Below, in pieces: positions 25,349-57,767 of a DNA stretch of 64,000 nucleotides. The position numbers and the translations under genes are program-made. The stretch lies in NCBI GenBank assembly GCA_019695375.1, contig JAIBAC010000002.1:700-64699 (forward strand). Reading direction: 5' to 3'. Source of the DNA: Acidimicrobiia bacterium. Lineage in GTDB: Bacteria > Actinomycetota > Acidimicrobiia > UBA2766. How positions within the stretch are numbered: position 1 is the stretch's first letter; every line of letters begins with the position of its first letter. The notes under the pieces were generated by a model that ran no database searches, was not told the DNA's origin, and saw nothing but the letters and a program-made list of their open reading frames with translations.

Positions 25349-26515
25349 ATGTCGACGGCTTCCCCAGCACCTGTCCCCGACCTCTCGCTGGCTGTGGCTC
25401 GGGAGTGGTTCCCGGTGTTCAACCGCTGGGCGTACCTCGACTTCGCCGGGGTTGCCCCCATCCCGCAGATCGCCGTGGATGCGGCGACGCTCGCACTCGA
25501 GGCGCAGGCGCTCGACGCGATCGTGAGCGTCGACGACACCGAGGCCGCGATCGAGGAGCTGCGCGAGGACGTGGCGCGGTTCGTGGGCGCCACTGCCGAG
25601 GAGATCGCGTTCGTGCGCAACACGACCGAGGGGCTCGGGTGGGTCGCGAACGGACTCGGCCTCGGCGCGGGGGACCGGGTGGTGGTCGCCGGTGACGACT
25701 TCCCGAGCGCGGTGCTGCCCTGGACCAACCTCGCCGCCCGCGGCGTCGACGTCGACGTCGTGGCCCGCCGCGGGCCCGGTGTCGTCCTCGACGACCTCGT
25801 CGCGGCCGTCGGCGGCGGGAAGCCACCGGCGCTCGTCGCGCTCACGTGGGTCCACTACGCGACCGGATGGCGGACCGACCTCGGCGAGATCGTGCGTGCA
25901 TGTCACGAGCGTGGTTCGCTCGTGTGCGCAGATGTGATCCAGGGCGTCGGTGTCATGCCCCTCGACCTCCACGCCACGGGTGTCGATTTCGCCGCGGCCG
26001 ACGGTCACAAGTGGCTCTGCAGCGTCGAGGGCCAGGGCTTCCTCTACGTCAGGCACTCGGTGCTCGACCGGCTGCAGGTGCTCGAGCCGGGCTGGAACTC
26101 GGTCGTCCAGCGTGGTCAGTGGGAGGACCTCGCGTGGACGCCCGACCCCGGGGCGCGTCGCCTCGAGGGCGGTACACCCACCCGTGTGGCACTCGCGGCG
26201 CTGCTCGCGTCGCTGCACCTCCTCGCCAGCACCGGCAGTGAGCGCATCTGGGATCGCGTCCGCGACCTGACGAACCGGGTGGTGGCCGGCGTTCACGATG
26301 CAGGCATGAACCTGTTGACGGCGCGCGACCCCGCGCACGCTTCGGGCATCGTGACGTTCAGCCATCCGCGGATGCGCGCCGAGGACCTCGGTGCCCTGCT
26401 CCGCAGCCGCGGTGTCGTGGTAGCGGCTCCGCGCGGAGGTGGGGTGAGGGTGAGCCCCCATTTCGTGTGCAACGAGGACGACGTCGACGCGTTGCTCGAG
26501 GCGTTGCCGCGATGA
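25349..26515 (+). CDS. Class-V aminotransferase-fold PLP enzyme (cysteine desulfurase/SufS-like)
   Basis: DGHKWLCSVEGQGFLYV carries the PLP lysine in the HK motif. Start at MSTASPAPV (ATG 25349). Confidence 0.8.
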   Translation: MSTASPAPVPDLSLAVAREWFPVFNRWAYLDFAGVAPIPQIAVDAATLALEAQALDAIVSVDDTEAAIEELREDVARFVGATAEEIAFVRNTTEGLGWVANGLGLGAGDRVVVAGDDFPSAVLPWTNLAARGVDVDVVARRGPGVVLDDLVAAVGGGKPPALVALTWVHYATGWRTDLGEIVRACHERGSLVCADVIQGVGVMPLDLHATGVDFAAADGHKWLCSVEGQGFLYVRHSVLDRLQVLEPGWNSVVQRGQWEDLAWTPDPGARRLEGGTPTRVALAALLASLHLLASTGSERIWDRVRDLTNRVVAGVHDAGMNLLTARDPAHASGIVTFSHPRMRAEDLGALLRSRGVVVAAPRGGGVRVSPHFVCNEDDVDALLEALPR

Positions 26516-28179
26516 GCGGAGAGCTCGCGCCGCAGCGCCCGCCGCCGCCGTGGTGGGGGCGCTCCCACGGTACCGACTGGCTCTTCGTCCCGGGCAGTGC
26601 CGGAGCCGAGGGGCTCCTGACGCTCCCCGAGATCGATCTGCTGCACGAGGGTCAGCGTGCGATGGTGCGCTTCGTCGGCGACGACTCGCCCCTCGTCGCC
26701 GTGCACGGTGCCGGTGCTGCGGTGACGACGCGCAGCGAGCAGCGTGGGCTCACGATCGAGGGTGCCATGGTGCACCTCGATCTGCGCTGGGGCGGCGTAC
26801 TGCGCCAGCGGCACTCGAGCAGGCCGCTGCCCGTCTCCCTCGGGGTGCGTTGGGATCCGTGGGCGTACGCGCTTGTCTTCGAGCCACTCGGGCAGGTACC
26901 GCTGGGCGCCTTCGCCGTCGTTCCGCACGCAGGGGTCAACCGGATCCACGTCGAGGGCATCGACTGGGACCCCGAGCGTGAGTCACGTCATCCTCCCCAG
27001 GACCGCCTCCGGGCGATGCTCGATCTGCCGGGACCCGTCCACGTCGCGGTCGGCATCGACGGCGACACCGCCGTCGGCGCTGCTCATGCGCTGCGCCGCG
27101 CGGTCGGACGCCCGGCCGAGCGCGGAGTGTTCGTACCCGAGGGCGTCAGTGCGCGAACCGTCGAGAACCTCCGGTTCTGCCGCATCGGTGCGCTGGGCCG
27201 TGCCATCGACACGGGCGAGTGGGTCCCCGTGACGTCACGCTCGCCCCGCTACGACCTCCCAGCGACGTTCCGTGCACGCGACTGGTTCCGGTGGGCGCTG
27301 CCTGCGGTCACGGCGTGTGACCCCGACGCCGCGCGTGACGGGCTCATCGCGGCGTGCCGGCTTGCCGGCGCTGCGCCGGGGATGCACGCCCTCGATCCTG
27401 CAGGCGCGCCGCACTTCGGCGGCTTCCAGCTCGATGCTGCTTGTGACGTTGCGCTCGGAGTCGGTGAGTACGTGCGCTCGACCGGGGACCACGGCGTCGT
27501 GTCCGAGCCGGAGGTCGACGATGCGTTGCGCGCTGTGGCTGAGGAGCTGCCGCGCTGGCACGACCGTGCCTTCGGCCTGTTCCGCACCGAGCTCGCACCA
27601 TCGGGCGACGCTGCACCGGGTCCGTTCCTGGCGGTGCCGAACGCGATGGCGATAGCCGCTTACGAGGTGCTCGGGAAGCTGAAGGTGATCGAGCACTCGA
27701 GCGCGGTACCAAAGCTCGCCAGCCTGTGGCGACAGGCGTTCGTGCAGGACGGCTGGATCGTGGGCGCCCTCGGTGCCGAAGGTCAGCCCTTCAACTGGGA
27801 CGACGCCACCGCCTCCGTCGCGATGCTGGGACGCCTCGGTGTGCTCGAACGCCGGGACGAAGACGCATGGAGCCGGACAGTCACCCACCTCATGTCGGCG
27901 CGGAACCCGAACCACGTGCCAGGGCGCTACCCGGGCGAACGCGCCGTTTGGATGCCCGGGCCGTGCCTGGAGGCGCTGGCCGAACGGATGCTCGCGTTCC
28001 CGAGCGGACGCGACGTCAGCGACGAGGGTCGCATGATCGCCGAGCACGCCCCGTTCGACGCGGACGGCATGGCGTGTGAGACCTATGACGCCGATACCGG
28101 GGTGGCGCTGTCGGGGGTCGGTTGGGCAGCGGGCTCGGGCCTGCTCGCCGCCGCATTGATGACGGCCGCGGGTCTGTGA
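26512..28179 (+). CDS. Conserved hypothetical protein, 555 aa, no recognisable catalytic motif
   Basis: Start ATG overlaps the upstream stop (ATGA at 26512..26515). Protein-like composition over the full length. Confidence 0.65.
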   Translation: MSGELAPQRPPPPWWGRSHGTDWLFVPGSAGAEGLLTLPEIDLLHEGQRAMVRFVGDDSPLVAVHGAGAAVTTRSEQRGLTIEGAMVHLDLRWGGVLRQRHSSRPLPVSLGVRWDPWAYALVFEPLGQVPLGAFAVVPHAGVNRIHVEGIDWDPERESRHPPQDRLRAMLDLPGPVHVAVGIDGDTAVGAAHALRRAVGRPAERGVFVPEGVSARTVENLRFCRIGALGRAIDTGEWVPVTSRSPRYDLPATFRARDWFRWALPAVTACDPDAARDGLIAACRLAGAAPGMHALDPAGAPHFGGFQLDAACDVALGVGEYVRSTGDHGVVSEPEVDDALRAVAEELPRWHDRAFGLFRTELAPSGDAAPGPFLAVPNAMAIAAYEVLGKLKVIEHSSAVPKLASLWRQAFVQDGWIVGALGAEGQPFNWDDATASVAMLGRLGVLERRDEDAWSRTVTHLMSARNPNHVPGRYPGERAVWMPGPCLEALAERMLAFPSGRDVSDEGRMIAEHAPFDADGMACETYDADTGVALSGVGWAAGSGLLAAALMTAAGL

Positions 28180-34383: not shown

Positions 34384-36363
34384 CTAGGGGTCGAAGCGGA
34401 GTGGACAGCCCCCCTGAGTCGGGTTGGGGACGAGGTCTGCGTCGTTGACGACGGCGGTCCCCGTCGCCGCCCACGAGTCGACGAAACCACGAACCAGCTC
34501 GGGGTTGGCGCGACCCACGAAGTGCATACCCGGTATCTCGACGAGCACGCCGGTGCGGTCGCCTCCGAGGTTCTCGCTGATCGGACGGTCGAGCGCGGGT
34601 CTTCCCTGGATCGTCTCGATCCCGGGAACCGGCGTGAGCACAGGGTTGGCGACGTCGAAGCCCGCCGCGGTCGCGAGATGGAAGGCGGCCTCCCGCGGCT
34701 GGCAGCCGTCGTCCATGCCGTTGGTCATGAGCACGTTCGGCGTGAGGATCCCCGACGCGTAGTTGGACGAGTCGCCCGCCTCTGCGAGGGTCTGGAGGAG
34801 CTGTGGGATCGGGTGCGGCTCCGACAGCTCCGAGCGGCCGGTGAACAGGAGCGTGTCAACCAGGGGGCGGATGTCTCCACGGTGGATGATGGCGTGGTAG
34901 AGGCCCGCGCCCGCGCTCGAGAGGAACGCGGCACCGAATCCCGGGTCGACGGCGAGTGCCGGCGCCACCGAGGTCGACCCCTGGCTGTGGCCCGAGTACA
35001 GGACCCTGGAGGGGTCGGTGACGAGCGTCAGGGCCGACCCGTCGCCGGGGTCGACGGTGGTGGTGAACGAACTTCCGAGACGGCGGAGGAAGCTCGCGTC
35101 GGCCGCCTGCTGCAGCTGGTTGTCGCGCCCGGCGACGGGGTTGAAGAAGTTGTAGAAGGCGAGCTCGGTGAGGTTGAACCCCCCAAGGTTGATCCCGAGC
35201 GCCGCGAGCCGCTGGCCGAACTCGGCAAGGCCGGGATCGGCACGGTCACCCGAGAAGTACGGCGCGATCGAGAACACGGCGACGTCGAGGTCCGCGGGCG
35301 CCGCGTAGTAGAGGCGCACGAAGTCGGTCGCCCGCGAGTAGTCGGCGCCCGTACCGTCGATGTGGGTGACGATCGGCCAGCCTCCCGGTGGCGGAGGGGT
35401 GCACGGGAACACCGCGCGGAAGTGCACGGGCTCGTCGAACTGCTTCACGGCCCTGCCGTTCTCGACGACGATGTTCCCGCCCGCGTCGAGGTACGGCGGT
35501 CTGCCGGCTTGCCAGCGCGGCAGGTCGGCGACACCGTCGAGCGTCACGCGTCCGCCACCCGCCGCGCAGCTCGTGACCACCTGGACGTCGCGAGCGGCCG
35601 GCAGCGGCAGCTCCTCGGATGCCGCCTGGATCGCCGCCATCGTCGGCCGGATCGTCTGGGTCGTGTACGACGTGAACGCGACGACGTCGCTCAAGTCCCA
35701 GGCGGTGTCCGAACCGACGTAGTCCTTCACGGCCTGCCACTGCTGTTGCAGGGCCTCGAACTTGTCCTCGGTGTAGCCACTCTGCGGTGTCCAGGGCTGA
35801 TCGAGGCGGGGCAGGTACCTGGCGGCGTCGACCGCCGCCCCTTCGGACGTGCGCAGGCCGTCGAAGAGCACCACGGCATACGTGGTCGCCTCGTCGAGTG
35901 GGAAACCGGGGTACGGCATCACGCTGAGCAGGTTGGCGGGCTTGTACAGGCTCGGCGCCGACGTGAACGTGGATTGCGCCGGGATGCGGCGGCCTCTGTT
36001 GGGGGAGTCGGGGTCGACGTCGACGATCATCACGGGCGACGCGTCCTCGAGCGATGCGTTCGGGCTGGGCAGCGACGTCGTGTCGATCTGCCCGTCGAAG
36101 GTGAAGTACGCCGACGCGTTCGGCCCGAACCCCTTGGTCGCGACCTCGCCGCGTTGCATGACCATGTTGACGATGCCGTTCCAGCGGCCGGGGAACCCTG
36201 CGAGGTCGATCGTGCCGTCGGGACGTGTGCGCACGTCGTTGGGCCACGGTGTTGCGAAGAAGCCGCCCTGGCCCCCGGGCGTCATGTTCGGCCGCACGTC
36301 GCAGGCGGCCAGCGCGGCGACGGCCGCAGCGACGGCGACCACCTGCCGGAGCCTGATCCTCAT
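34384..36363 (-). CDS. Secreted lipoprotein, putative alpha/beta hydrolase (GHSQG serine motif)
   Basis: MRIRLRQVVAVAAAVAALAACDV is a lipobox with cysteine. GHSQGSTSV is GxSxG. RBS GGAGGA lies before ATG 36363. Confidence 0.6.
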   Translation of the reverse strand: MRIRLRQVVAVAAAVAALAACDVRPNMTPGGQGGFFATPWPNDVRTRPDGTIDLAGFPGRWNGIVNMVMQRGEVATKGFGPNASAYFTFDGQIDTTSLPSPNASLEDASPVMIVDVDPDSPNRGRRIPAQSTFTSAPSLYKPANLLSVMPYPGFPLDEATTYAVVLFDGLRTSEGAAVDAARYLPRLDQPWTPQSGYTEDKFEALQQQWQAVKDYVGSDTAWDLSDVVAFTSYTTQTIRPTMAAIQAASEELPLPAARDVQVVTSCAAGGGRVTLDGVADLPRWQAGRPPYLDAGGNIVVENGRAVKQFDEPVHFRAVFPCTPPPPGGWPIVTHIDGTGADYSRATDFVRLYYAAPADLDVAVFSIAPYFSGDRADPGLAEFGQRLAALGINLGGFNLTELAFYNFFNPVAGRDNQLQQAADASFLRRLGSSFTTTVDPGDGSALTLVTDPSRVLYSGHSQGSTSVAPALAVDPGFGAAFLSSAGAGLYHAIIHRGDIRPLVDTLLFTGRSELSEPHPIPQLLQTLAEAGDSSNYASGILTPNVLMTNGMDDGCQPREAAFHLATAAGFDVANPVLTPVPGIETIQGRPALDRPISENLGGDRTGVLVEIPGMHFVGRANPELVRGFVDSWAATGTAVVNDADLVPNPTQGGCPLRFDP

Positions 36364-36459
36364 GGATTCCTCCCCGCTCCGCGGCATCGACCCGCGGCCG
36401 TCCCCCAAGGTCGTCCTCAGGTTTGCGTTCGACGCGGCTGGGCGCGCATCCTGGCCGGC

Positions 36460-37287
36460 ATGATCACCCGGCTCCACCACGTCGCCGCCGTCGTCCCGAC
36501 CCTCGAGGACGGGGTGTCCGTGTGGCGTGACATCTTCGGCCTTCACGTCGAGTGCGAGGCGACGGTACCCGAACAAGGCGTGCGCGCGTGTCTGCTGCCC
36601 TGCGGTGACGGCGAGATCGAGCTGCTGCAGCCGCTCGATCCCGACGGCGCGATCGCAGGCTTCGCCGCCCGCGGCGGCGGTGTGCACCACGTCTGCTTCG
36701 AGTCCGACGACGTCGCCGCCGAGCTGAGCCGCATGGCTGCGGCGGGGGTGCGCCTCATCGACGAGGTGCCGCGGCCGGGCCTCGCAGGCCGCATCGGCTT
36801 CGTGCACCCGAAGGCGACGCTCGGCTCCCTCGTCGAGATCGCGACGCCCGGCGCGGGTGTCGCGGTCGAGGCCTACGCCGTGCCCGAACCGGCCGCGCCG
36901 GCACCGGTCCCTGTGCGCCGCTACAGCCACCTCACCTACTGCGTCGAGAACTTCGACGCGGCCGCCGAGCTCTTCGACGCGAACTTCGGACTCGAGGCTG
37001 CGCTCAACCCGCACGAGGTCGAGTACCTCGGGGGTGAGGCGCTGCGCGTCCCGCTCGCGAACGCAGCCGTCGAGCTGGCGCGCCCGATGGACGCCGGCGG
37101 TTGGCTCGACCGGCGCCTGTCCCAGCGCGGCGAGGGCGCCGCGGTGCTGCACCTCGAGCTCGGCGCCGCGACCGTCCCGGAAGAGGCCGAGCTGCGCGGG
37201 CTCGGTTTCGACGTCGAGGATCTCGGCGACGGGACCACGATGCTCTCTGGTGAGCGCACCGGCGGCATGTGCATCGCCCTGTCGTGA
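36460..37287 (+). CDS. Tandem VOC/glyoxalase-fold protein (methylmalonyl-CoA epimerase-like)
   Basis: MITRLHHVAAVVPTLEDGVSVWRDIFGL... second VOC unit YSHLTYCVENFDAAAELF. Confidence 0.7.
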   Translation: MITRLHHVAAVVPTLEDGVSVWRDIFGLHVECEATVPEQGVRACLLPCGDGEIELLQPLDPDGAIAGFAARGGGVHHVCFESDDVAAELSRMAAAGVRLIDEVPRPGLAGRIGFVHPKATLGSLVEIATPGAGVAVEAYAVPEPAAPAPVPVRRYSHLTYCVENFDAAAELFDANFGLEAALNPHEVEYLGGEALRVPLANAAVELARPMDAGGWLDRRLSQRGEGAAVLHLELGAATVPEEAELRGLGFDVEDLGDGTTMLSGERTGGMCIALS

Positions 37288-38321: not shown

Positions 38322-39704
38322 TCACGCGGGAGCGAAGCGCACCCATGCGTCGAGGCCGCCACCGGGCGCCTCGTCGAGGCCGGCTTCGCCACCGCCGGAG
38401 CGGGCGAGCTGGTTCACGATCGCGAGGCCGAGGCCAGTACCGCCGCCGTCGGACGACCCCCGACCTCGCCAGAGCCGTTCGAACGCGACGGAGCGCTCCG
38501 CCGCGGTCATTCCGGGACCGGCGTCGAGGACGTGCATCTCGACCCACTCGTCGTCGCGCTCGACGAGCACGACCACCTCGCTGCCTTCGGGTGCGGCCTC
38601 GAGCGCGTTGGCGATGAGGTTGTCGAGAATCTGCTCCGGCGCGTCGGGGACGGTCGTTGCGCGGAGTGCGTCGGGGGCTTCGCAGCGCAACACCACGCCG
38701 CGCTCGTCGGCGAGGAACGTCCATGTGGCTGTCCGTTCCCGTGCGACCGCTGCGATGTCGCCGGTGACACGGTGCGAGGGCTCGTGCTGGGTTCGTGCGA
38801 ACGCGAGCAGACGGTCCACGAGGCGAGACAGCCGAGCTGTCTCGCTGAGAGCGGCCTCGACCTCGTCGCGGCCTCCGCCACCGATGGAGTCCTGGAGGTT
38901 TTCGAGGCGGAGCTGCAGTGCCGTGAGGGGAGTACGCAGGTCGTGGGATACGTTTGCTGTGAACTGGCTCTGCTGGACGAGTAGATCCTCGATGCGAGCT
39001 GCCATCACGTCGAGGGCCGCGGCGAGGTGGCGTATCTCATGCGGTCCCGACGCGATACCTGCTCGGGTGCCGAGGTCTCCGTCTGCGAGTCTCTCGGCAA
39101 CCGACTCGAGCTGGCGGAGCGGACGCGTGAAACTGCGGGCGAGAAGCGCTCCGACCGCGGCAGTTGTGGCGAGCACGACCGCGGAAAGCAATCCGAGGCG
39201 CACCCAGTTGCCGTTCACTCGGGAGTCCACCTCGCCGGCGGGGTGAGTGAGGCGCACGGCGCCGTACACCGTCCCGCCCGAGGCGACGGGCACTGCTGCG
39301 TACTGGAGGCTCTGACCCAACGTGTTGGAGTAGCGCCTTCCACCTGCACGCGAGCCGCCGAGGGCGATCTGGACTTCGGGTCGTGTCGCAAAGTCGCTGC
39401 CGACGTCGCTGTCCTCGTCGCCGGTCGGACCGGCGTCGGCGACGGCCGTGCCAGTGGCATCGACGACCACGACGCGGGCGCCGGTACGTCGGGAGTACCC
39501 GTCGGCGATCGCGTCCAACCCGTCGGTGCCTCCATGCTCCAGGGTCTCCTCGACGAACGTCGCTAGCACGGTCGCGTCCAACTCGAGTCTGGTGCTGAGC
39601 CGGTCGCGCTCGTTGCGGGCAACAACCAATCCGAGCGGAACGACCAGGACCAGCAGCACGAAGGCCGTGATCACGAGGTAGGTCAGCAGAAGCCGGCGGG
39701 TCAT
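38322..39704 (-). CDS. Two-component sensor histidine kinase
   Basis: TM-HAMP, then H-box NVSHDLRTPLTAL, then HATPase GGGTGLGLAIV. Confidence 0.9.
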   Translation of the reverse strand: MTRRLLLTYLVITAFVLLVLVVPLGLVVARNERDRLSTRLELDATVLATFVEETLEHGGTDGLDAIADGYSRRTGARVVVVDATGTAVADAGPTGDEDSDVGSDFATRPEVQIALGGSRAGGRRYSNTLGQSLQYAAVPVASGGTVYGAVRLTHPAGEVDSRVNGNWVRLGLLSAVVLATTAAVGALLARSFTRPLRQLESVAERLADGDLGTRAGIASGPHEIRHLAAALDVMAARIEDLLVQQSQFTANVSHDLRTPLTALQLRLENLQDSIGGGGRDEVEAALSETARLSRLVDRLLAFARTQHEPSHRVTGDIAAVARERTATWTFLADERGVVLRCEAPDALRATTVPDAPEQILDNLIANALEAAPEGSEVVVLVERDDEWVEMHVLDAGPGMTAAERSVAFERLWRGRGSSDGGGTGLGLAIVNQLARSGGGEAGLDEAPGGGLDAWVRFAPA

Positions 39705-40360
39705 TGCTGGGGTCCGAGCCTGAAGCCCACGCCGCGAACGGTTTCGATCCGGCCGGGGTCACCGAGCTTGCGCCGCAGCGACGCGACGTGGACGTCGAGC
39801 GTCTTCGTCGGGCCCCACCACTGTGTCTCCCACACGTCGTGCAAGATCCGGTCGCGGGAGCACACCGTACCGGGATCCTCGGCGAGATACGCCAGAACGT
39901 CGAACTCCTTCGGAGTCAGCGCTATCTCGTCACCGGCACGGGTGACCTTGCGGGCGCGCCTGTCTACGAAGAGGTCCCCGACGCGCGTCTGCGCGCCAGG
40001 GTCGGTTCGGTCACCGCTGCGCCGTGACACGGCGCGAATCCTCGCGATCAGCTCCCGCGCTCCGAAAGGCTTGACCAGGTAGTCGTCTGCACCGAGCTCG
40101 AGGAGCAGCACGCGGTCGACCTCGTCGGCTCGCGCGCTCACGACGATGATCGGCACCGCCGACTTCTCGCGCAGTTGCCGGCAGACTTCCTGCCCGTCGA
40201 TGTCGGGCAGGCCGAGGTCGAGCAGGACGAGGTCCGGTACGGTGGCGTCGAGAGCGGCGATGCCGCTGCGTTCGCGGATGACGTCGAATCCTTCCCGGAC
40301 CAGTCGGGACGTGACAGGTTCCGCGATCGAGTCGTCGTCCTCGACGAGCAGTATCCGCAT
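39701..40360 (-). CDS. OmpR-family response regulator
   Basis: MRILLVEDDDSIAE... LLDLGLPDIDG ... winged-helix VRGVGFRL. Stop/start overlap with the kinase. Confidence 0.9.
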   Translation of the reverse strand: MRILLVEDDDSIAEPVTSRLVREGFDVIRERSGIAALDATVPDLVLLDLGLPDIDGQEVCRQLREKSAVPIIVVSARADEVDRVLLLELGADDYLVKPFGARELIARIRAVSRRSGDRTDPGAQTRVGDLFVDRRARKVTRAGDEIALTPKEFDVLAYLAEDPGTVCSRDRILHDVWETQWWGPTKTLDVHVASLRRKLGDPGRIETVRGVGFRLGPQQ

Positions 40361-40420
40361 GGACGCAAGTCTGCACGACCTCACGGCTGTCGCCGCCGTC
40401 GGGTCCGGATCTTCACCGAA

Positions 40421-40448
40421 CCTTTACCTGTCGCAAACCCGCCTTTAC
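40421..40448 (+). promoter_or_regulatory. Direct repeat CCTTTAC-n14-CCTTTAC about 25-50 bp upstream of the ApbE operon, candidate response-regulator binding site
   Basis: Two exact CCTTTAC heptamers spaced 21 bp centre-to-centre, in the divergent region between the OmpR regulator and the 40472 gene. Confidence 0.3.
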
Positions 40449-40471
40449 ACAGAGGTGCATACGCTCACCGC

Positions 40472-40804
40472 ATGAGATCGAAGACCAGCACCGCCGCCAA
40501 GATCGGACTAGTGGCTCTCGTGCTCGCCGCCGGTGTGGTGGCCGTCGTCGCCAACTACGGCATCCTCACGGCGAATCGACCGAGCCCTGACGTGGGGGTC
40601 CTGTCCGCTACTGAGGTCGTGGAATCCTTCGACCCGACGACGGTGCCATCCGCGACGGCTCCCGCGGCAGTGGACGCTGCTCAACCGAACGCTGTCACGG
40701 AACCGTACGTCGACGATCACGACAGCGACCACCGCGACGATCATGATCGCGATCGCGAGGATCGCGGCGATCACGATGAGAGCCCGGACCACGACGATGA
40801 CTGA
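40472..40804 (+). CDS. Small membrane-anchored protein with C-terminal His/Asp-rich acidic tail
   Basis: N-terminal TM KIGLVALVLAAGVVAVVANYGIL. C-terminus DDHDSDHRDDHDRDREDRGDHDESPDHDDD. First gene of a four-gene operon whose stops and starts overlap. Confidence 0.45.
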   Translation: MRSKTSTAAKIGLVALVLAAGVVAVVANYGILTANRPSPDVGVLSATEVVESFDPTTVPSATAPAAVDAAQPNAVTEPYVDDHDSDHRDDHDRDREDRGDHDESPDHDDD

Positions 40805-41096
40805 CACATCCGCGCCCGCGGGCCGCGGTCATGCCGCCCGCAGTGCCCGCCGCTGGGCCGTCGGCCTGAGCACCTGGGCCGCTGTCGTCCTGACGGGTGT
40901 CTTCGCCGGATCAGCTTCCCGTGCCGGCACGGGAACCACTGTGTCGGTCTCAGGCGCCACGGCAGGAACGCAGTCGGTTGGGCCTCGCACCCCGCCGCCA
41001 GCCGCGGTGCCGAAGGCGACCTCGCCGTCGCGTGCGAAACCGGCACCGACTCCCACGTCGCGCCAGCCATCGGCTCGTAGCCGTGCAAGCGGCTGA
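40797..41096 (+). CDS. Small membrane-anchored Ser/Thr/Pro-rich protein with SGAT flavinylation-like motif
   Basis: ATG overlaps the upstream stop (ATGACTGA). TM WAVGLSTWAAVVLTGVFAG. Motif TTVSVSGATAGT resembles the ApbE target [S/T]GA[T/S]. Lies immediately upstream of apbE. Confidence 0.4.
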   Translation: MTDTSAPAGRGHAARSARRWAVGLSTWAAVVLTGVFAGSASRAGTGTTVSVSGATAGTQSVGPRTPPPAAVPKATSPSRAKPAPTPTSRQPSARSRASG

Positions 41097-42015
41097 CCGC
41101 ACATTCCGTGCGATGGGGTGCACGGCGGCAATGCGCGTCGTCGCGGACGATGCGTCCGTTGCCTCAGCGCTGGCTGATGTCCTGGTGGCACGCGTAGAGC
41201 ATTTGGAGCGGCGGTGGAGCCGCTTCAACCCCGACAGCGAGGTGAGCCGTGTCAACGCCGCCGGCGGACGCCCTGTCGCGGTCAGCGATGACACCGCACT
41301 CCTCGTCGCAACGATGGTCGAAGCGTCGCAGTTGACGGCGGGGCGCTACGACCCGACGCTGCTCGACGCTCTGCGGGACGTTGGCTACGGCGACACCTGG
41401 GATCCCGATAGGCGCTTCGTCGAGGACGCGAGCGTCGAATCGACGCACCGTGGCCACGGCTGCGGCGGCATCCACGTCGACCTCGACACCGGAGTCGTGG
41501 AGATGGCTCCAGGCGTCGCGATCGAACCCGGCGGTATCGGCAAGGGCCTCGCCGGCGACCTCCTCGTCGCCGATGCCGTGGCCGGAGGTGCGTCAGGGGT
41601 CATGATCGACCTCGGCGGCGACGTTCGCGTCCATGGCGACGCGGGTGACGGGCCTGGCTGGTTGGTGGCGATCGAGGATCCCCACGAACGCGGTCGCGAC
41701 CTCGCGGCGGTCGAGATCGAGACGGGCGCCGTCTGCACGAGCAGTCGCCTACTGCGGCGATGGTTCACGCATACGGGTCCTGCTCACCACCTCCTCGACC
41801 CGGCCACGGGACGTCCCGTGGATGGCGAGCTCGACGCTGTCACTGTCGTCGCCGGTACCGGCTGGTGGGCAGAGGCACTGACGAAGGCCGTGTTCGTCGC
41901 CGGGCTGCCTGATGCGGTGGATCTCATTCGCGAATCCGGTTGCAGCGCAGCCCTCGTCACAGCAAGCGGAGAGGTGGTCAGGACTGGCGATCTCCTGATG
42001 GAGGAGGTGGCATGA
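41083..42015 (+). CDS. apbE: FAD:protein FMN transferase ApbE
   Basis: FRAMGCTAAMRVV (F-x-AMGT ApbE N-motif) ... IEPGGIGKGLAGD. Start probably GTG 41083 (or ATG 41113), no signal peptide evident. Confidence 0.75.
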   Translation: MQAADRTFRAMGCTAAMRVVADDASVASALADVLVARVEHLERRWSRFNPDSEVSRVNAAGGRPVAVSDDTALLVATMVEASQLTAGRYDPTLLDALRDVGYGDTWDPDRRFVEDASVESTHRGHGCGGIHVDLDTGVVEMAPGVAIEPGGIGKGLAGDLLVADAVAGGASGVMIDLGGDVRVHGDAGDGPGWLVAIEDPHERGRDLAAVEIETGAVCTSSRLLRRWFTHTGPAHHLLDPATGRPVDGELDAVTVVAGTGWWAEALTKAVFVAGLPDAVDLIRESGCSAALVTASGEVVRTGDLLMEEVA

Positions 42016-42572
42016 CGGAGCAGGTGTGGTGGTATGTAGCTCGAGCTAGCGGCATCGTCGCGTCGGCCTTGGTGGCGGCAGCGGTGATCTGGGGACTGTT
42101 GTTGTCCACGCGGGTGCTGCGCGACCGGCCGCGCCCGGCATGGCTTCTCGACCTGCACCGGATGCTCGGCGGCCTCGCGGTCGCGTTCGTGGTTGTCCAC
42201 GTGGCTTCGCTCGCCGCAGACTCCTACGTGGAGTTCGGGCCGGTGGACGTGCTTGTGCCTTTCGTGTCCGACTGGCGGCCCGGTCCGGTTGCGTTCGGAG
42301 TCCTGGCTACGTACTTGCTCATGGCGGCCGAGGTCTCGTCGCTGATGATGCGGCGACTGCCGCGCCGATGGTGGCACCGCGTTCACCTGAGCAGTTACGT
42401 GTGCTTCTGGGCCGTCACCATGCACGGAGCCACCGCAGGCACCGACGTCGCCAACCCCTTGTTCCGTTGGGGTTCGATCACCGCGATCGCTGTTGTTGTA
42501 GTGCTGAGCGTGTACCGCGTGGCCGTCGAGCGCAGATCCAGGCGCAAGCGGCCGGTGCCGGCAGCAGCGTGA
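42012..42572 (+). CDS. Ferric-reductase-like (FRD/MsrQ-like) di-haem transmembrane protein
   Basis: Six predicted TM segments. Paired His in HRMLGGLAVAFVVVH and HRVHLSSYVCFWAVTMH. ATGA overlap with the apbE stop. Confidence 0.7.
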   Translation: MTEQVWWYVARASGIVASALVAAAVIWGLLLSTRVLRDRPRPAWLLDLHRMLGGLAVAFVVVHVASLAADSYVEFGPVDVLVPFVSDWRPGPVAFGVLATYLLMAAEVSSLMMRRLPRRWWHRVHLSSYVCFWAVTMHGATAGTDVANPLFRWGSITAIAVVVVLSVYRVAVERRSRRKRPVPAAA

Positions 42573-44586: not shown

Positions 44587-45771
44587 TCAGTCGGGCAGGG
44601 TGGCCTCGATGACACCGGGGAGGGCGTCCTCGATGGGGCGGCCCGAGCGCAGGTGGACCGGCCAGCGCTTGCGGGACTTGGCGGCGAGGCGGCGCATCAG
44701 GGTGACGGCGGCAGGGTCCTCGTCGACGGCGGACTTCACCTCGAGCCAGCCCTCGGACACCATCTCGTCGAAGATCTTGCGGCCTGTCTCAGTGCGGACG
44801 ATCGTCAGCGTCCACCCGCCGGTCTGACCGAGGCCCCCCATCGAGATGTCGGCGTGCTCGGCGGCGAAGTCAGGACACGTCGTGCAGCCGGGGCGCGTGA
44901 ACTCGTGGCACTCCGACAGCGGCACCTCGAGGTAGTCGCCCTCCACGACGCCGGGGCGGGTCCAGAGCTGGAGCTTGCCTTTGATGTTCATCTTGACGAT
45001 GTCGCTGCGGGCGAGGCCGTACTTGGGCGCGATCAGGTCCTCGAAGATGTCGTCGGTGAACGACTTCGAGCACAGCAACCCGATGGTGAGCACGAACTTC
45101 TTGCCGGACTTGCGGGCGCCGCGGGTCATCATCATCGGCGGAGACGACGTCATGCATCCCATCCCGACGAGCGCGAGCTTCTCGGCCCCGGCGTCGATCG
45201 CCTCCTGGTACGCAAGGGGGTTTGCGGAGTACGTGTACCGCGAGCCCGCTGCCCGCAGGACGTCGGCCTCGGTGGTGGCGACGCCCGGCGTGGCACGCCA
45301 TTCGTCGTCGACGTAGCTCACGAGCGCGGCGTCGATGTGTCCCTTGCGCAGGCACCAGATCAGCATCGCCGTGCAGAAGCCGCCGTCCTGGCCCTTGTCG
45401 AGCCAGTCGGGGTCGACGGTGCGCACCAACAGGACGTCCTGGTGGATGCCGATGACCTCCTTCTGGGTCGGCTTGCGCTCGCGACCGTGGAGGAACTCGT
45501 CGATCTCGGGTTCCCACGCGCGAAACCGCGGGCACGCCCGCGTGCACATCGTGCACGCCTTCTCACCGTGGACGCAGCGGTCGGCGGCACCGTCGACGCG
45601 GGCCTCCTCGGCGAGGACCGGGTGCCAGTGCTCGTCGTAGCCGAGGACGTCGTGGGGGCAGGCGACGATGCAGCCGCTGCAACCGGTGCACACGTTGGTG
45701 GCCACGACCTCGTTCTGGAGGTGGTTCCAGTGCAACAGCCAACGTGGCTTCTTCTGGACTTCGCCGGCCAC
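44587..45771 (-). CDS. Coenzyme F420 hydrogenase/dehydrogenase beta-subunit (FrhB/FpoF)-family protein with N-terminal 2x[4Fe-4S] ferredoxin domain
   Basis: CTGCSGCIVACP and CTMCTRACP cluster motifs, then an FrhB-like domain. Start uncertain (GTG about 45771 with GGGAGA RBS, or upstream). Confidence 0.65.
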   Translation of the reverse strand: MAGEVQKKPRWLLHWNHLQNEVVATNVCTGCSGCIVACPHDVLGYDEHWHPVLAEEARVDGAADRCVHGEKACTMCTRACPRFRAWEPEIDEFLHGRERKPTQKEVIGIHQDVLLVRTVDPDWLDKGQDGGFCTAMLIWCLRKGHIDAALVSYVDDEWRATPGVATTEADVLRAAGSRYTYSANPLAYQEAIDAGAEKLALVGMGCMTSSPPMMMTRGARKSGKKFVLTIGLLCSKSFTDDIFEDLIAPKYGLARSDIVKMNIKGKLQLWTRPGVVEGDYLEVPLSECHEFTRPGCTTCPDFAAEHADISMGGLGQTGGWTLTIVRTETGRKIFDEMVSEGWLEVKSAVDEDPAAVTLMRRLAAKSRKRWPVHLRSGRPIEDALPGVIEATLPD

Positions 45772-45808
45772 GGCCAGTGTCTCCCGGGTGGTGGACGATG
45801 GCGAGAGC

Positions 45809-47221
45809 CTACGTGACGGGCCCGCCACCGGCCGAAGCAGCGATGGCTGCCGCCGCCGGGACGCTCGGGCCGCCACGGCGCAGCGCCCGCGTCATGCGGA
45901 CCGCAGTCACGACGCCCACGACCGTGATCGCAGCCCCGGTCGCGAGCGTGAAGGTGTACGACCCCGCGACGGTCTCACCGCCCCCGACTTCGACGAGGGA
46001 GAGGAACACGGCGATTCCCGTCGAGTTCGCGAGCTGAGACGTGAGCGAGAGCACGCTTGCCGCCGGCCCGAGCAGCTCGCGGGGGGACCGGCTCGTCACA
46101 ACGGTGCCGATCGCCGACGACGACAGGCCGAGCCCGACGCCCTGGAGCACGAGCGCGAGGAGCAGCAGCGGGTAGTTGGGCTGATCCGGGAGGAGCGCGA
46201 GGACCACGAGGGCGGCGGCGACGAGCGAGCTGCCACCGACGGTGAGGGCTCCTTCGCCCAGGCGCGAGGTGAGGCGTGGGATGAACGGGCCTGTTATCCC
46301 CATGGCGATGGGACGGGGAAGGAGTGCGAAGCTGACGAGTGCCACGTCCCAGCCCCAGATGTCACCGAGGAACAGCGGCATCACGATGAAGCTGCCCATG
46401 TACGCGGCGTTGACGACGAAGCGGCTCGTCATCCCGTTGGCTATCGCCCGCTCCAGGAAGAGGCGCAGGGGCACGATGGGGTTGTCAGCCCTCTGCTCGG
46501 TGCGGACGAACAGTGCGGTCGCGGTCACTGCGACGGCGATGCACGCGAGCACGGGTGCGGATGTCCAGCCCCACTTGGGAGCCTGGTTCACGCCGAGGAG
46601 GAGAGTGGTGACGGCGGCTGCCGCCAGCACGGTGCCCATGGTGTCGAAGCGGCCCTTGGTCTCGATGCGCTGCTCGTCGAAGACAACGAACGCCAGCAGC
46701 CACGCCAGCAGTGCGAGTGGGAGCTGCATGGCGAAGAGCCAGCGCCAGCTCAGCCACTCGACGACGACGCCGCCGACGATCCCCAGGGCGGGGGCGAAAG
46801 CGACCGTTGCAGTCCAGTAACCGATGGGCGTGGAGCGCGCCTCCGGTGGGTAGTGGCTCGTAGCCATCGCGAGACCCGATGGCAGCACCCAGGCGGTGCC
46901 GAAGCCGGTCAGGAGGCGCGCTGCGATCAGCGCCGGCAGCGACCACGCCACTGCCGAGAACGCCATCCCGGCGATCGTGATCGCGAAGCCGACGAGCCAG
47001 ATCCGGCGACGGCCGAAGCGGTCGGCGATGCGACCTGCGGGTGGGGTGAGGAGGGTCGCGAGGACGATCGGCCCGAGTGTGATCCACGCCGTGTCGCCGG
47101 TCGAGGCCCCGAACTCGTCTGCGATCGTCTTGATCGCGATCCCGAGGATGGTGAGGGTGAGGTTGACGGCGAAGGTGGCGAGGAGCACCACTGCGAGCAC
47201 CCACGCGCGACGGCCTCGGAC
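45809..47221 (-). CDS. MFS transporter (DHA2-like, 14 TMS)
   Basis: GRIADRFGRRRIWLVG MFS motif A. Start set at GTG 47221, preceded by GGAGG. The longer ORF would overlap tetR. Confidence 0.8.
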   Translation of the reverse strand, partial: VRGRRAWVLAVVLLATFAVNLTLTILGIAIKTIADEFGASTGDTAWITLGPIVLATLLTPPAGRIADRFGRRRIWLVGFAITIAGMAFSAVAWSLPALIAARLLTGFGTAWVLPSGLAMATSHYPPEARSTPIGYWTATVAFAPALGIVGGVVVEWLSWRWLFAMQLPLALLAWLLAFVVFDEQRIETKGRFDTMGTVLAAAAVTTLLLGVNQAPKWGWTSAPVLACIAVAVTATALFVRTEQRADNPIVPLRLFLERAIANGMTSRFVVNAAYMGSFIVMPLFLGDIWGWDVALVSFALLPRPIAMGITGPFIPRLTSRLGEGALTVGGSSLVAAALVVLALLPDQPNYPLLLLALVLQGVGLGLSSSAIGTVVTSRSPRELLGPAASVLSLTSQLANSTGIAVFLSLVEVGGGETVAGSYTFTLATGAAITVVGVVTAVRMTRALRRGGPSVPAAAAIAASAGGGPVT

Positions 47222-55073: not shown

Positions 55074-55871
55074 TCAGCGGCCCTCGAGGTTCGAGATGTC
55101 CTCTTCGACGGCGTGCACGACCTGCTCGGGGAAGCGTTCGAGCAGGTTGCGGGTGGCTTCGGCGAGCGCCGCGGGATCGCGACTGTCCATCGTGACCTTC
55201 ACCTGGTACTCGACCTCGCCGATGACCGGATAGCTCCCGAAGCTGACCGCGCCGGCGAACGCCTCGGCCAGATCGGTCAGCGGGCGCGCGAGCTGACCCT
55301 CGTCGATGCGGAAGTACGCGACGTTGGTCACGACCGGTCGCGACCCGAGTCCAGCGAGGAGCGCGTCGACCTGGCGCCGGAAGATCTGGGGGACACCCGG
55401 GAGCATCACGACGTTCTCGACGGTGTACGCCGGCCACGCCGTGGCGAGGTCGAGCAGCCGGCAGCCCGTCGGCACCATCGCCATCTTCTGCCAGGCCTGG
55501 CCGCTCTCGTCGTTGCCGAAGAAGGTGGCGACCACGGCGGCAAGGTCCTCGCGCAGCTCGAGCTCCATGCCGAAGGCCTTGGCGACGGCCTCCATCGATA
55601 CGTCGTCGTGGGTGGGTCCGATACCTCCGGACGTGAAGCAGATGTCACGGCGGTGGCGCACGAGGTCGACCGATTCGATGATGGCGTCGACGTCGTCGGA
55701 TACGAAATGGATCTCCTCGAGATCGAGCCCGTGACGACGCAACGCGTCGATTAGATAGGGGCCGTTGGCGTCGCGGACCTTGCCCGAGAGGAGCTCGTCG
55801 CCGATCATCACGACTCCGGCGGTGAGGGGGCCCTCCTTGTCGCCGGCGAGCTGGCGGCGGAACGTGGTCAC
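55074..55871 (-). CDS. CinA N-terminal-domain/MoCF-biosynthesis-domain protein
   Basis: AGVVMIGDELLSGKVRDANG matches the CinA N-terminus. GTG start 55871 with AGGAG RBS. GTGA overlap with the upstream VOC gene stop. Confidence 0.65.
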   Translation of the reverse strand: MTTFRRQLAGDKEGPLTAGVVMIGDELLSGKVRDANGPYLIDALRRHGLDLEEIHFVSDDVDAIIESVDLVRHRRDICFTSGGIGPTHDDVSMEAVAKAFGMELELREDLAAVVATFFGNDESGQAWQKMAMVPTGCRLLDLATAWPAYTVENVVMLPGVPQIFRRQVDALLAGLGSRPVVTNVAYFRIDEGQLARPLTDLAEAFAGAVSFGSYPVIGEVEYQVKVTMDSRDPAALAEATRNLLERFPEQVVHAVEEDISNLEGR

Positions 55872-56530
55872 GCGCTCCTGCCTCTCTGCGCTGGTGCCGC
55901 TTCGACGAACGCGATCGTGGCACCGAGCACATCCCCCGGGCACTGTGCGATGCGGCCGCCCTGGATCGAGCGGCTCGGGTCGGTGATGGTGCCGCCACGT
56001 TCGCGCACTACGGCCGCGGTCTTGTCGCAGTCGTCCACCGCGAAGGCGACGCCCCACAGGCGTGGCCCGGCCAGCGAGCGCATCTCGATCAGTTCGAGCA
56101 CCGCTTCACCCGCACGCAGGAACGCCGCCGGCAGGCCCTTGACCTCGCCACGCCGCCGGCAGTCGGCACCGGCGTACTCCTCGAGACCGGCGATCGAGGT
56201 CTCGAGGCGAGGCACCATGACGACGACATGGTCGACGTGATCTGCACCGTTGGCGTGCGCGGCGTCCCGCGGGACCGGTGCCGCGCTCCGCAGCGTCGTG
56301 GGCGGAAGAGTCGACGGGTCGAGGCGGATCGGGCCGTCCGACTCGCCTGAGAACGACCAGGCACGCAGGCCGGGCTCGTCGACTTCATCGCCACCGGCCT
56401 CGAGCTCGAACGTGACCTCGCCCACCGTGAGGGCATCGGGCGTATCGAGGTCGAAGCCGATCCGTGCGAGCTCGGCGGCGGCGCCGGCGAGGTCTTCCAC
56501 GGTCCACGTCAAGGCGATCAGGTGGCTCAC
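55868..56530 (-). CDS. VOC/glyoxalase-family protein, two domains
   Basis: Protein-like ORF with VOC-like beta-alpha-beta repeats. Weak assignment. Confidence 0.5.
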   Translation of the reverse strand: MSHLIALTWTVEDLAGAAAELARIGFDLDTPDALTVGEVTFELEAGGDEVDEPGLRAWSFSGESDGPIRLDPSTLPPTTLRSAAPVPRDAAHANGADHVDHVVVMVPRLETSIAGLEEYAGADCRRRGEVKGLPAAFLRAGEAVLELIEMRSLAGPRLWGVAFAVDDCDKTAAVVRERGGTITDPSRSIQGGRIAQCPGDVLGATIAFVEAAPAQRGRSA

Positions 56531-56570: not shown

Positions 56571-57767
56571 TCAGGTCCGTGCGGCGAGGAGCGGGACGAC
56601 CGCTTCGGCCGCAGTGAGGCTGCCGTGGTGGCCGATGAGCTCGGCTTGGCGCGGGTCGACGCGGCGGCAGAACACGCCGCCCTCGCCGTGGTAGGCCGCC
56701 ACGACATCGCCGATGCGGTTGCGGGCCTCGGGGCCGGCGTGAGGCCCGAACCAGCCTGCTGCGATCGCGTCGGCACCGCGCAGCACCCAGGCCACCTCAC
56801 CGAGGCGCTCGGACCATGCGTCGAGCACATCGCCGGCTGCACCATCACGGGCGTAGACATGGCGGAAGCGAGGTTCGCCGCCGAGGGCGCGGACGCCGCC
56901 GGCGAGGGCAGCGTCGTCGTCGACGTCTATGCGGCCCTCCGCCACGTCGACCATCCCGTGGTCGCCGGTCACGAGCAGCACCGATCCCGCAGGCAGCTCG
57001 TCACGAAGACGCGCTGCCACGGCGTCGACCGCGGCGAGGGCGGTGACAGCGTCCTCACCATCGATGCCGCTTCCGTGCGCGGCGTGGTCGAAGCGTGGGT
57101 CGTAGGCGTAGACGAGCGCCCGGTCACCCTCTCCGAGGGCGGCCGCGACGAGCTCCGGGATCTCGTCAGGTGAGTCCCAGCCGGCGTAGTTGCCACCACG
57201 GAGAGCGGCACGCGTGAGGCCGCTGTCGGAGAAGCGGCGGTCCGACACGGTGGTGGTGGCCACGCCTGCCGCGACGGCGCGCTCGAACACCGTCCGGTTC
57301 GCCTGGAGCTGCTCCGGTACGAGGCGGCGGACGAGCGTGTTCGACTTCGACTCGCCGTAGCGGTTGAACCGGATCAGGTTGACGACCGCGCCGACCTCAC
57401 GCATCCACGCCGTGTAGCCGACGACGCCGTGGCGGCCCGGTGCCGTGCCCGTCCCGAACGACGTGATGCTCGTGGCCGTCGTCGACGGGCAGCACGTGTC
57501 GATCTGCCGGCTACCGGTCTCGGCGCGCATCGCCGCGAGCGTCGGTGCGACGTCGCGGTGGTGTTCGACGACGTCGCTGCCGAGACCGTCGGCGAGCAGC
57601 ACGCAGACCCGCTCGCACGTGCCGAGGGACTCACGCAGGGCCAGCGGATCTGCCGTGGAGTCGTGAGGATCCACCAGCGCGAGCGCCGATGGGAGGACCT
57701 CTGCCAGGGTCCCGCGACCGTAGGCGGGCAGCCGCGGCCCGGGCACGGAATCGGAGGACGCCACCAC
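56571..57767 (-). CDS. Alkaline-phosphatase-superfamily protein (type I phosphodiesterase/nucleotide pyrophosphatase-like)
   Basis: LLADGLGSD ... GDHGM metal-ligand motifs typical of the AP superfamily. Confidence 0.65.
   Translation of the reverse strand: MVASSDSVPGPRLPAYGRGTLAEVLPSALALVDPHDSTADPLALRESLGTCERVCVLLADGLGSDVVEHHRDVAPTLAAMRAETGSRQIDTCCPSTTATSITSFGTGTAPGRHGVVGYTAWMREVGAVVNLIRFNRYGESKSNTLVRRLVPEQLQANRTVFERAVAAGVATTTVSDRRFSDSGLTRAALRGGNYAGWDSPDEIPELVAAALGEGDRALVYAYDPRFDHAAHGSGIDGEDAVTALAAVDAVAARLRDELPAGSVLLVTGDHGMVDVAEGRIDVDDDAALAGGVRALGGEPRFRHVYARDGAAGDVLDAWSERLGEVAWVLRGADAIAAGWFGPHAGPEARNRIGDVVAAYHGEGGVFCRRVDPRQAELIGHHGSLTAAEAVVPLLAART

Follow-up and report, generated by a model that had tools for sequence, protein, structure and literature searches.

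Flavinylation by ApbE, the FAD:protein FMN transferase (FAD, flavin adenine dinucleotide; FMN, flavin mononucleotide), underlies several bacterial extracytoplasmic redox systems. Among the gene clusters built around this enzyme, the MsrQ-like clusters place a cytochrome of the PF01794 family beside apbE, typically together with a gene for an FMN-binding-domain protein and often with a fusion to a nicotinamide adenine dinucleotide (NAD)-binding domain (Meheust et al. 2021, eLife, PMC8238504). Such clusters are conserved widely across Actinobacteria, and they are proposed to transfer electrons across the membrane, some of them for iron assimilation (PMC8238504), and they have also been analysed with AlphaFold by Huang et al. 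2024 (PMC11334425). In the same 2021 survey, 4% of the apbE-containing genomes were ‘orphans’ without a known substrate; no Acidimicrobiia clusters are listed in the portion of its supplement that was consulted (PMC8238504). Here, we describe a four-gene cassette, g1-g2-apbE-FRD, in a stretch of 64,000 nucleotides (nt) from contig JAIBAC010000002.1 of an Acidimicrobiia bacterium, the whole of which is hereafter called the window. With a probability of about one half, we read this cassette as a two-component-regulated variant of the MsrQ-like flavinylation-associated electron-transfer clusters, in which the small proteins g1 and g2 replace the FMN-binding protein.

Acidimicrobiia are abundant in soils, waters and wastewater and are poorly cultured, and the cassette is a compact and widely conserved orphan case among them. 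Its only candidate partners for ApbE are two unclassified small proteins, one of which, g2, is invisible to standard annotation. The four genes thus constitute a test bed for a new ApbE substrate or for a new cytoplasmic role of ApbE, and they also allow the wiring of a five-helix di-haem cytochrome to be asked about.

Comparison with known flavinylation and electron-transfer systems

The likeness of the cassette to MsrQ-like clusters lies in a PF01794 cytochrome with two pairs of His residues, encoded beside apbE in an actinobacterial taxon, and in an ortholog from Nakamurella (locus L015) whose cytochrome has the usual C-terminal FAD/NAD-binding fusion. The function proposed for both is electron transfer across the membrane, with iron reduction as a possibility. 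The cassette differs from them in several respects. It has no gene for an FMN-binding-domain protein, the unrelated g1 and g2 occupying that place, and its ApbE has neither the signal peptide nor the lipobox that served as an inclusion filter in the survey (PMC8238504). Its cytochrome is minimal, with 186 amino acids (aa), five helices and no NAD domain, and the whole unit is tightly linked to a two-component system. Although g1 and g2 have signal-anchor-like helices, they are not recognised ApbE substrates.

A second relative is MsrPQ (YedYZ) of Escherichia coli, a periplasmic methionine-sulfoxide reductase system. The two share the Ferric_reduct/YedZ family of the membrane subunit, along with b-haem His ligands, but MsrQ has six helices, MsrPQ works without an ApbE, and no MsrP molybdoenzyme partner is encoded in the cassette or among the window open reading frames (ORFs) scanned, about 45 of which were covered by the Pfam searches. 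The Listeria extracellular electron transfer locus (FmnB/PplA) likewise combines an ApbE-family gene with small membrane- or surface-anchored proteins that are thought to carry flavin outside. FmnB, however, is an exported lipoprotein and PplA a canonical FMN_bind protein with SGAT-type sites, whereas neither an export signal nor an FMN_bind domain nor a conserved SGAT is present in the cassette. The cytosolic ApbE of Klebsiella pneumoniae shares the lack of a signal peptide, but its target is a soluble cytoplasmic fumarate reductase with FMN_bind and a canonical motif, while the partner in the cassette is a membrane cytochrome (PMC12052999). An iron-limitation paper on Bifidobacterium, featuring apbE and a ferric reductase, was considered as a parallel and set aside, as the two genes are unlinked there.

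Organization and conservation of the cassette

The four genes lie on the plus strand of the window, and each stop codon overlaps the next start. The first, g1 (40472..40804), encodes a 110-aa small protein and overlaps g2 (40797..41096; 99 aa, single-pass) by 8 nt, ATGACTGA. The gene apbE (41083..42015; 310 aa) begins at GTG 41083, 14 nt ahead of the g2 stop at 41094-41096, and FRD (42012..42572; 186 aa), which encodes a minimal ferric-reductase/MsrQ-type cytochrome b, begins at ATG 42012, where start and apbE stop share ATGA, and GGAGGAGG lies just before it. A first-pass annotation of the stretch, made from the sequence alone, had given these coordinates and overlaps, which are exact for all four genes. 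The products of g1, apbE and FRD are identical to MBX7158779.1 (annotated as a hypothetical protein), MBX7158780.1 and MBX7158781.1, respectively, from an Acidimicrobiia metagenome-assembled genome (MAG) with K1X95_ locus tags. On the minus strand, divergent from the cassette, are genes for an OmpR/PhoB-type response regulator (39701..40360), in which Pfam finds Response_reg and Trans_reg_C, and for a 460-aa sensor histidine kinase (38322..39704), with a periplasmic sensor region followed by HAMP, HisKA and HATPase_c domains; the divergent regulator and kinase pair of the first-pass annotation is thereby borne out.

Scanning the ApbE protein against one genome per species gave 25 related loci, nearly all of them in Acidimicrobiia MAGs, with one Nakamurella and a few others. 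FRD follows apbE in all 25, g1 and g2 lie between the kinase gene and apbE in most, and the regulator and kinase genes adjoin the cassette in at least 16. The commonest arrangement is co-directional, regulator-kinase-g1-g2-apbE-FRD, and three other, diverse contigs, found solely by way of g2, again show the order g1-like, g2, ApbE, Ferric_reduct. The grouping of the four genes as one unit, originally drawn from a single genome, is therefore found again when co-occurrence is compared across related loci. The regulator genes are inverted in the window and in L012, L018 and L035, and they do not lie in the flank of L028, L032 and L034; g1 and g2 remain with apbE-FRD in all of these. At L015 (Nakamurella sp. 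MAG, 1306 onward), a g2-like gene and a signal-less apbE precede an FRD fused to a FAD/NAD-binding reductase domain, and this arrangement, as read from the domains, connects the cassette with the NAD-dependent form of MsrQ-like architecture, the common one.

Some loci depart from this scheme. Three more distant Acidimicrobiia MAGs (L025, L026 and L027) have, in place of g1 and g2, one ORF of 520-680 aa that is extremely Pro/Ala/Thr-rich and ends about 57 nt before apbE, and one locus (L013) has neither g1 nor g2.

ApbE and the FRD cytochrome

It is likely that FRD and ApbE form a redox module of the MsrQ-like kind. ApbE matches PF02424 with 177.5 bits against a gathering score of 25.6 (E 4.9e-52), over positions 1-263 of the 266 in the model, and aligns over its full length to five solved FMN transferases (E about 1e-21). 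FRD matches PF01794 (Ferric_reduct) with 32.5 bits against a gathering score of 28, residues 14-133 aligning with model positions 2-118 of 121. Both families named in the first-pass annotation thus score above threshold. The paired His residues that it had pointed out in FRD do not vary among 26 orthologs: one helix holds H49 and H63, another H125 and H138. The two members of each pair lie about 13 residues apart, and these four His are the predicted haem ligands. Equally invariant are W-x-L-D-L-H-R, the A-G-T-D that follows the last His, and an E…S-L…R-L-P-R stretch. Hydropathy and a low-confidence single-sequence model (predicted local distance difference test, pLDDT, of 59) both give five transmembrane (TM) helices, so that the canonical first helix of six seems to be missing, and the C-terminus is basic. 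FRD has no sequence-level match to any solved structure in the PDB, and the model, with its pLDDT of 59, is too poor for a fold search.

The catalytic centre of ApbE comprises Ser241, His257 and Asp285 in Vibrio cholerae numbering (PMC12052999). The cassette enzyme matches the solved ones at the Ser (CTSS) and the His (AHHLLDP), while the Asp position is Glu (WWAEALTK) in all orthologs seen. In the E. coli enzyme, the metal-1 ligands D280 and T284 belong to a D-x-L-[S/A]-T motif (PMC4767422, Table 3), which is present in all five solved homologs and is replaced here by E-A-L-T-K, near residue 265 of 310. The FRAMG strand of ApbE begins after only some 8 residues, the sole in-frame upstream extension is Arg-rich, and the protein has no hydrophobic segment (maximum 19-residue hydropathy 1.48); its orthologs begin M-Q-A-E…F-x-A-M-G. 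The public annotation starts instead at ATG 41131, giving 294 aa and deleting the conserved FRAMG strand, and GTG 41083 is the better start for this reason.

Known ApbE substrates and their relatives were sought in the same scans. The FMN-binding domain PF04205 occurs in neither g1 nor g2, in none of the 17 g1-family and 21 g2-family members, and in none of the window ORFs scanned, and the latter likewise contain no NqrB/RnfD, DUF2271, DUF3570, Flavodoxin_4, FMN_red or fumarate-reductase domain. The search with FMN_bind and ferric-reductase models that the first-pass annotation had suggested as a check therefore returned the second kind of domain and not the first, in the cassette or the window ORFs scanned. 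Over all six frames of the window, D..[ST]GA[ST] matched twice, each time in a non-coding frame rich in Arg and Ser.

The small proteins g1 and g2

We lean towards g1 and g2 being functional subunits of the FRD/ApbE module. Neither matches any model in Pfam or NCBIfam, and Pfam has no family for the 17 g1 orthologs or for the 21 members of the g2 family. In single-sequence searches, both proteins yield near-identical proteins only, and a profile is required to reach their relatives.

The N-terminus of g1 is a signal-anchor helix (residues 8-26). Common to the 17 orthologs are this helix, the juxtamembrane sequence A-L-N-x-G-I-L … D-x-V-G-x-L-x-P, a spacer rich in Pro and Thr, and a polyacidic tail. 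The spacer of the window protein is Pro/Ala/Thr-rich, and its tail is polyacidic, contains His and ends in DDD, the last 32 residues including 15 Asp, 2 Glu and 5 His. The first-pass annotation had singled out this His/Asp tail, and an acidic tail is indeed conserved in 17 of 17 orthologs, its last 35 residues including 7-23 Asp/Glu and, as a rule, an ending of the form (H/Y)-E-G-x-x-D-D-D. None of the 17 contains [S/T]GA[S/T]. Just before the acidic tail, 5 of the 17 carry a PVTTSxAS-like element (V-T-T-S-x-[A/G]-S; 0.16 expected), which resembles the C-terminus of g2 described below. A common origin of g1 and g2 as paralogs was considered and rejected, hhalign giving a probability of 1.6% with only three ‘TTS’ columns aligned. 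The NCBI version of g1 starts later and has 97 aa.

The orthologs of g2 start with M-T-[D/T/E], normally overlapping the g1 stop, and continue with a basic stretch, RRxHAAxGxRIL, a hydrophobic helix, ..GLSxAATLGLxxAMA, a variable Pro/Ala/Thr tail and the C-terminus T-T-S-[H/R]-[A/G]-S. AlphaFold, run with the family alignment, gives the window protein a single helix (residues 13-43) and predicts the remainder to be disordered or coil. Conservation is confined to the juxtamembrane region, the TM helix and the extreme C-terminus, where the hallmark of the family, P-P-V-T-T-S-[R/H]-[A/G]-S, forms the very end of the protein in 75 of 96 family representatives (78%) and lies no more than two residues from the end in 85 of 96 (89%), against 1.9% expected from shuffled tails. 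In many loci, the hallmark partly overlaps the apbE start codon. Conservation solely through this overlap was rejected as an explanation, since the hallmark persists in L017, L020, L021, L028 and L030; it is retained at loci whose apbE begins downstream of the g2 stop or is read in a different frame, which argues for selection at the protein level.

The flavinylation consensus given in a 2025 review is D-x-x-[S/T]-G-A-[S/T] (PMC12052999). ApbE can act on terminal tags that are short and unstructured, as well as on C-terminal extensions (PMC12052999; PMC11334425), and the C-terminus of g2 is for this reason a legitimate, though non-canonical, candidate site. The engineered 7-residue Flavin-tag (PMC12052999) and the FMN_red proteins with flavinylated unstructured C-terminal extensions (PMC11334425) are precedents for a modified Ser/Thr in a short terminal peptide, and g2 has a Ser-rich C-terminus. 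The precedents keep the Gly-Ala core, whereas the g2 family would offer [S/T]-x-[A/G]-S.

The tails of g1 and g2 also show a complementary pattern. Many g1 orthologs, for example those of L021, L028, L030, L012 and L018, have a strand-like acidic segment (…ITVYVDD…, …IETVIVDEP…), and the cognate g2 proteins have a basic segment that is also strand-like (…TVIVIRR…, …IVRVIVRRH…). For the window pair, Asp and Glu number 23 in the strongly acidic g1 tail, and the g2 tail is basic, with 8 Arg/Lys and neither Asp nor Glu. This match between acidic g1 segments and basic g2 segments suggests that the two tails may pair with each other.

Proposed mechanism and the location of ApbE

If the cassette is a variant of the MsrQ-like clusters, the OmpR-type two-component system would switch the operon through conserved direct repeats, and FRD, with its two b haems, would move electrons across the membrane. 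These electrons would come from the quinol pool in the window organism and from NAD(P)H in Nakamurella, where FRD is fused to the FAD/NAD-binding domain. ApbE would provide covalent FMN to a partner. Taking the place of the classic FMN-binding-domain protein, g1, g2 or both would be the likely partners of the cytochrome at the outer face, and the polyacidic His/Tyr tail of g1 would be suited to holding a metal cation. We infer an outward electron flow, the flavinylation of g1 or g2 and a metal as the final acceptor. In outline, then, the flavin-transferase-associated transmembrane electron-transfer module proposed in the first-pass annotation stands, while its key step, flavinylation of a VSGAT motif in g2, does not (see below).

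That g2 or g1 carries flavin is a tentative proposal and somewhat doubtful. If one of them does, the candidate site would be the conserved Ser/Thr run at the C-terminus of g2. A more specific version of this proposal, and an unlikely one, makes the C-terminal PPVTTS[R/H][A/G]S a new acceptor for a divergent, signal-less Glu/Lys clade of ApbE, with g2, its flavin held on a flexible tether, shuttling electrons from FRD to a metal held by g1. Modification of g2 might then occur in the cytoplasm, immediately after its coupled translation and ahead of the export of its tail. Were this true, the g2 C-terminus would be one of the ‘less prevalent ApbE substrates’ left unidentified in the survey (PMC8238504), and the Gly-Ala rule for flavinylation sites would no longer hold.

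Several observations weigh against the proposed scheme. Neither in the window nor in the orthologs does ApbE have a signal peptide, a lipobox or a hydrophobic N-terminus, whichever start is chosen, whereas the tails of g1 and g2 are predicted to lie outside, so that the enzyme and its proposed acceptor would be on opposite sides of the membrane. The extracytoplasmic pairing of ApbE with g2 put forward in the first-pass annotation is not supported on this point. The residues equivalent to the metal ligands D280 and T284 are Glu and Lys, constant in the orthologs seen, which makes even the transferase activity of ApbE uncertain, although a Thr one position earlier in the motif may possibly provide some compensation. 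The hallmark of g2 mostly has Arg or His at the Gly position of the flavinylation motif and lacks its Asp; the window protein itself ends in a degenerate form, …SARSRASG, and the window g1 does not contain the PVTTSxAS-like element. The positive-inside signal of the window g2 is weak, given the 8 Arg/Lys in its tail. In addition, the substrate scans reached only 64 kb of the genome, and no evidence links the module to a particular metal or substrate.

The alternative that survives best, though we consider it unlikely, is that the signal-less ApbE acts in the cytoplasm. It would flavinylate a protein encoded elsewhere or a cytoplasmic face of an FRD/g2 complex, in the latter version allowing a NOX/STEAP-like entry of flavin electrons to the haems, or it would only bind flavin or hydrolyse FAD as a partner of the cytochrome; g1 and g2 would be structural or metal-binding. 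The absence of a signal peptide from every ortholog and the altered metal ligands both fit this view, as does the ATGA overlap of apbE and FRD, which suggests stoichiometric co-production. E. coli MsrQ, according to 2017 work by Juillan-Binard, can reportedly take electrons from a cytosolic flavin reductase. Cytosolic ApbEs are moreover documented in K. pneumoniae, where they serve cytoplasmic FMN_bind-containing reductases (PMC12052999), but no cytoplasmic target of the FMN_bind or fumarate-reductase type is found among the window ORFs scanned, and no conserved cytoplasmic Ser/Thr in a Gly-Ala context is present in FRD or in the N-terminus of g2. The Nakamurella ortholog has its own FAD/NAD entry domain in FRD and yet retains apbE and g2, which argues that flavin is needed on the far side of the membrane.

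Probable regulation by the adjacent two-component system

An operator-like set of direct repeats (40421..40448, without assigned strand) lies between the divergent regulator gene and g1. Within the 64 kb, the heptamer CCTTTAC is found at two places only, 40421 and 40442, which are 21 bp apart (0.41 occurrences expected), and a related half-site, CGCAAAC, stands halfway between the two copies. The whole element reads CCTTTAC(C), N4, CGCAAAC(C), N2, CCTTTAC, that is, three half-sites with a spacing of about 10.5 bp. A homologous element, AACCTTTACC-N4-CGCTAACC, with half-sites 11 bp apart, is found upstream of g1 in 13 other loci, so that the direct repeat first noticed in the window proves to be part of a conserved operator-like element. 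It is present whatever the orientation of the regulator genes, and where these are co-directional with the cassette, it lies between the kinase gene and g1. To judge from its sequence, the layout is that of a classic OmpR/PhoB-family operator. Because these repeats are conserved upstream of g1, it is a reasonable inference that the adjacent two-component system controls the g1-g2-apbE-FRD operon.

The regulator has 219 aa when started at ATG 40360, the form chosen by gene callers, and its ORF is open back to GTG 40384. The best NCBIfam match of the kinase, to a heavy-metal sensor kinase subfamily, is below threshold (155.6 bits against a cut-off of 292.55), and giving the two-component system a name was abandoned because every NCBIfam hit, for regulator and kinase alike, is far below the equivalog cut-offs. 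In the window, the last repeat ends 24 bp ahead of the g1 start, compared with about 60-100 bp in the orthologs, which implies either that the promoter overlaps the repeats or that the mRNA leader is very short.

The same neighbourhood could be explained by g1 and g2 being sensing or modulator accessories of the adjacent kinase, for example a metal-binding acidic bait and a membrane connector, with ApbE-FRD as a separate regulated output. Small proteins tune PhoQ or EnvZ, and g1 and g2 are likewise tiny and single-pass, without enzymatic domains; the polyacidic, His-containing tail of g1 suits cation binding, and the order regulator-kinase-g1-g2 is strictly kept in most loci. We nevertheless regard such a role as improbable. 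Where the regulator genes are inverted or not in the flank, g1 and g2 follow apbE-FRD, g2 is translationally coupled to apbE and not to the kinase gene, and the position of the operator-like element between the kinase gene and g1 assigns g1 and g2 to the regulated operon.

The SGAT motif of g2

The first-pass annotation had noted a VSGAT motif after the TM helix of g2, and had proposed that ApbE attaches FMN to its Thr. The motif is present in the window protein, at residues 51-55 (nt 40947-40961). Its surroundings, VSVSGAT, contain the S-G-A-T core but have Val at the position of the Asp in D-x-x-[S/T]-G-A-[S/T]; replacement of this Asp by Ala is reported to have only minor effects (PMC12052999). 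[S/T]GA[S/T] is found in 1 of 15 aligned g2 orthologs and anywhere in only 4 of 96 family representatives, the full consensus in 0 of 96, and shuffling the residues of g2 produces [S/T]GA[S/T] in 12-15% of trials. The first-pass annotation had itself named the lack of the motif in orthologs as a ground for refutation, and that ground applies.

A mechanism in which ApbE places FMN on Thr55 at the outer face, making g2 the flavinylated acceptor for FRD, is accordingly very improbable, even though the VSGAT directly follows the TM helix, [S/T]GA[S/T] is recognised as the core at which ApbE acts (PMC8238504) and the ortholog of L030 has TGAT at a similar position. The motif is missing from 14 of the 15 aligned orthologs and from 92 of the 96 representatives, none has it with the D-x-x prefix, chance yields it in 12-15% of shuffles of g2, it sits in the least conserved and lowest-confidence part of g2, and ApbE has no export signal. 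Comparison of the aligned family indicates that the SGAT of the window is a chance feature of one genome, and a conserved role for it is refuted. In a small protein of low complexity, even a textbook motif can arise purely by chance; here, the comparison of orthologs both eliminated SGAT and revealed the truly conserved C-terminus of g2.

g2 as a gene missed by annotation

Gene callers leave a gap of 326 bp between g1 and apbE, and Prodigal-type calls on identical contigs also omit g2. That it is unannotated at NCBI follows from the accessions of g1, apbE and FRD, which are consecutive (MBX7158779-781). Comparative evidence indicates, however, that g2 is a real, cassette-specific small membrane protein missed by public annotation, and the first-pass annotation was right to treat the 99-aa ORF as a genuine gene. 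At least 18 related Acidimicrobiia/Actinomycetota loci contain an ORF that matches it in start context, TM helix and C-terminus. Across eight pairs of g2 orthologs, nucleotide differences number 262, 163 and 401 at codon positions 1, 2 and 3, respectively, and this order (third above first above second) points to a translated frame under coding constraint. A g2 profile recovers 21 proteins of 68-157 aa from a large database, all of them ‘hypothetical’, and 236 cluster representatives, almost all of 70-170 aa, from an exhaustive library. The family, with its at least 236 representatives, all ‘hypothetical’, is probably under-called.

The idea that 40797-41096 is no gene at all, and simply the kind of frame that stays open in 70% G+C DNA, here within a long spacer or the 5' region of apbE, can draw on the omission of g2 by gene callers and NCBI, on its atypical G+C by codon position (0.66/0.82/0.71) and on a single-sequence search of 5.8 billion proteins that returned one near-identical protein only, but it is practically dismissed by the strongly contrary comparative evidence just given, namely the recurrent ORF, the substitution pattern and the profile relatives, and by a frame relation between g2 and apbE that varies among orthologs and is thus not that of an apbE extension.

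This frame relation, counted from the g2 stop to the apbE start, is +1 in most orthologs; L017 and L021 have +2, and L030 has apbE in-frame behind its TGA. Its variability also rules out g2 as a membrane anchor joined to ApbE through programmed frameshifting or stop read-through. Among the 236 profile hits, long ORFs that join g2 to neighbouring genes are limited to P0023 (392 aa) and P0161 (564 aa). P0161 strings g1-like and g2-like sequence together with ApbE, and P0023 does so with the C-terminus of the kinase. Since the joins contain out-of-frame Arg/Thr-rich stretches, both have the look of assembly indels, or of calls made too long in high-G+C DNA, and not of natural fusions.

Other features of the window

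The window as a whole has a G+C content of 70%. Third-position G+C is 0.71-0.82 in the cassette genes and 0.83-0.93 in most flanking genes, and a different history or low expression are possible causes of the lower values. Because the third-position G+C of the cassette is below that of its neighbours, a simple G+C-based gene finder miscalled antisense ORFs inside g1 and apbE, and its calls were excluded for the cassette.

Downstream of the cassette, Pfam identifies genes for a MarR regulator and a ClC channel and, just past the latter, 44587-45876 (minus strand) encodes an iron-sulfur protein resembling the F420-hydrogenase/dehydrogenase beta subunit. About 13 kb downstream are a gene with MoCF_biosynth and FAD-synthase middle (FLAD1_M) domains (55074-56057, minus strand) and one for a type I phosphodiesterase/nucleotide pyrophosphatase (56571-57767, minus strand), whose products could touch flavin-nucleotide metabolism. 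Four further large ORFs have good coding statistics: 34384-37152 (minus strand, 922 aa) has no Pfam match at E<=1e-5, and 6269-8014 (minus strand, 581 aa), 21601-23205 (minus strand, 534 aa) and 26467-28179 (plus strand, 570 aa) have none at E<=1e-3. Towards the start of the window, 11438-12982 and 13258-14667, both on the plus strand, are tandem wax-ester synthase/diacylglycerol acyltransferase genes.

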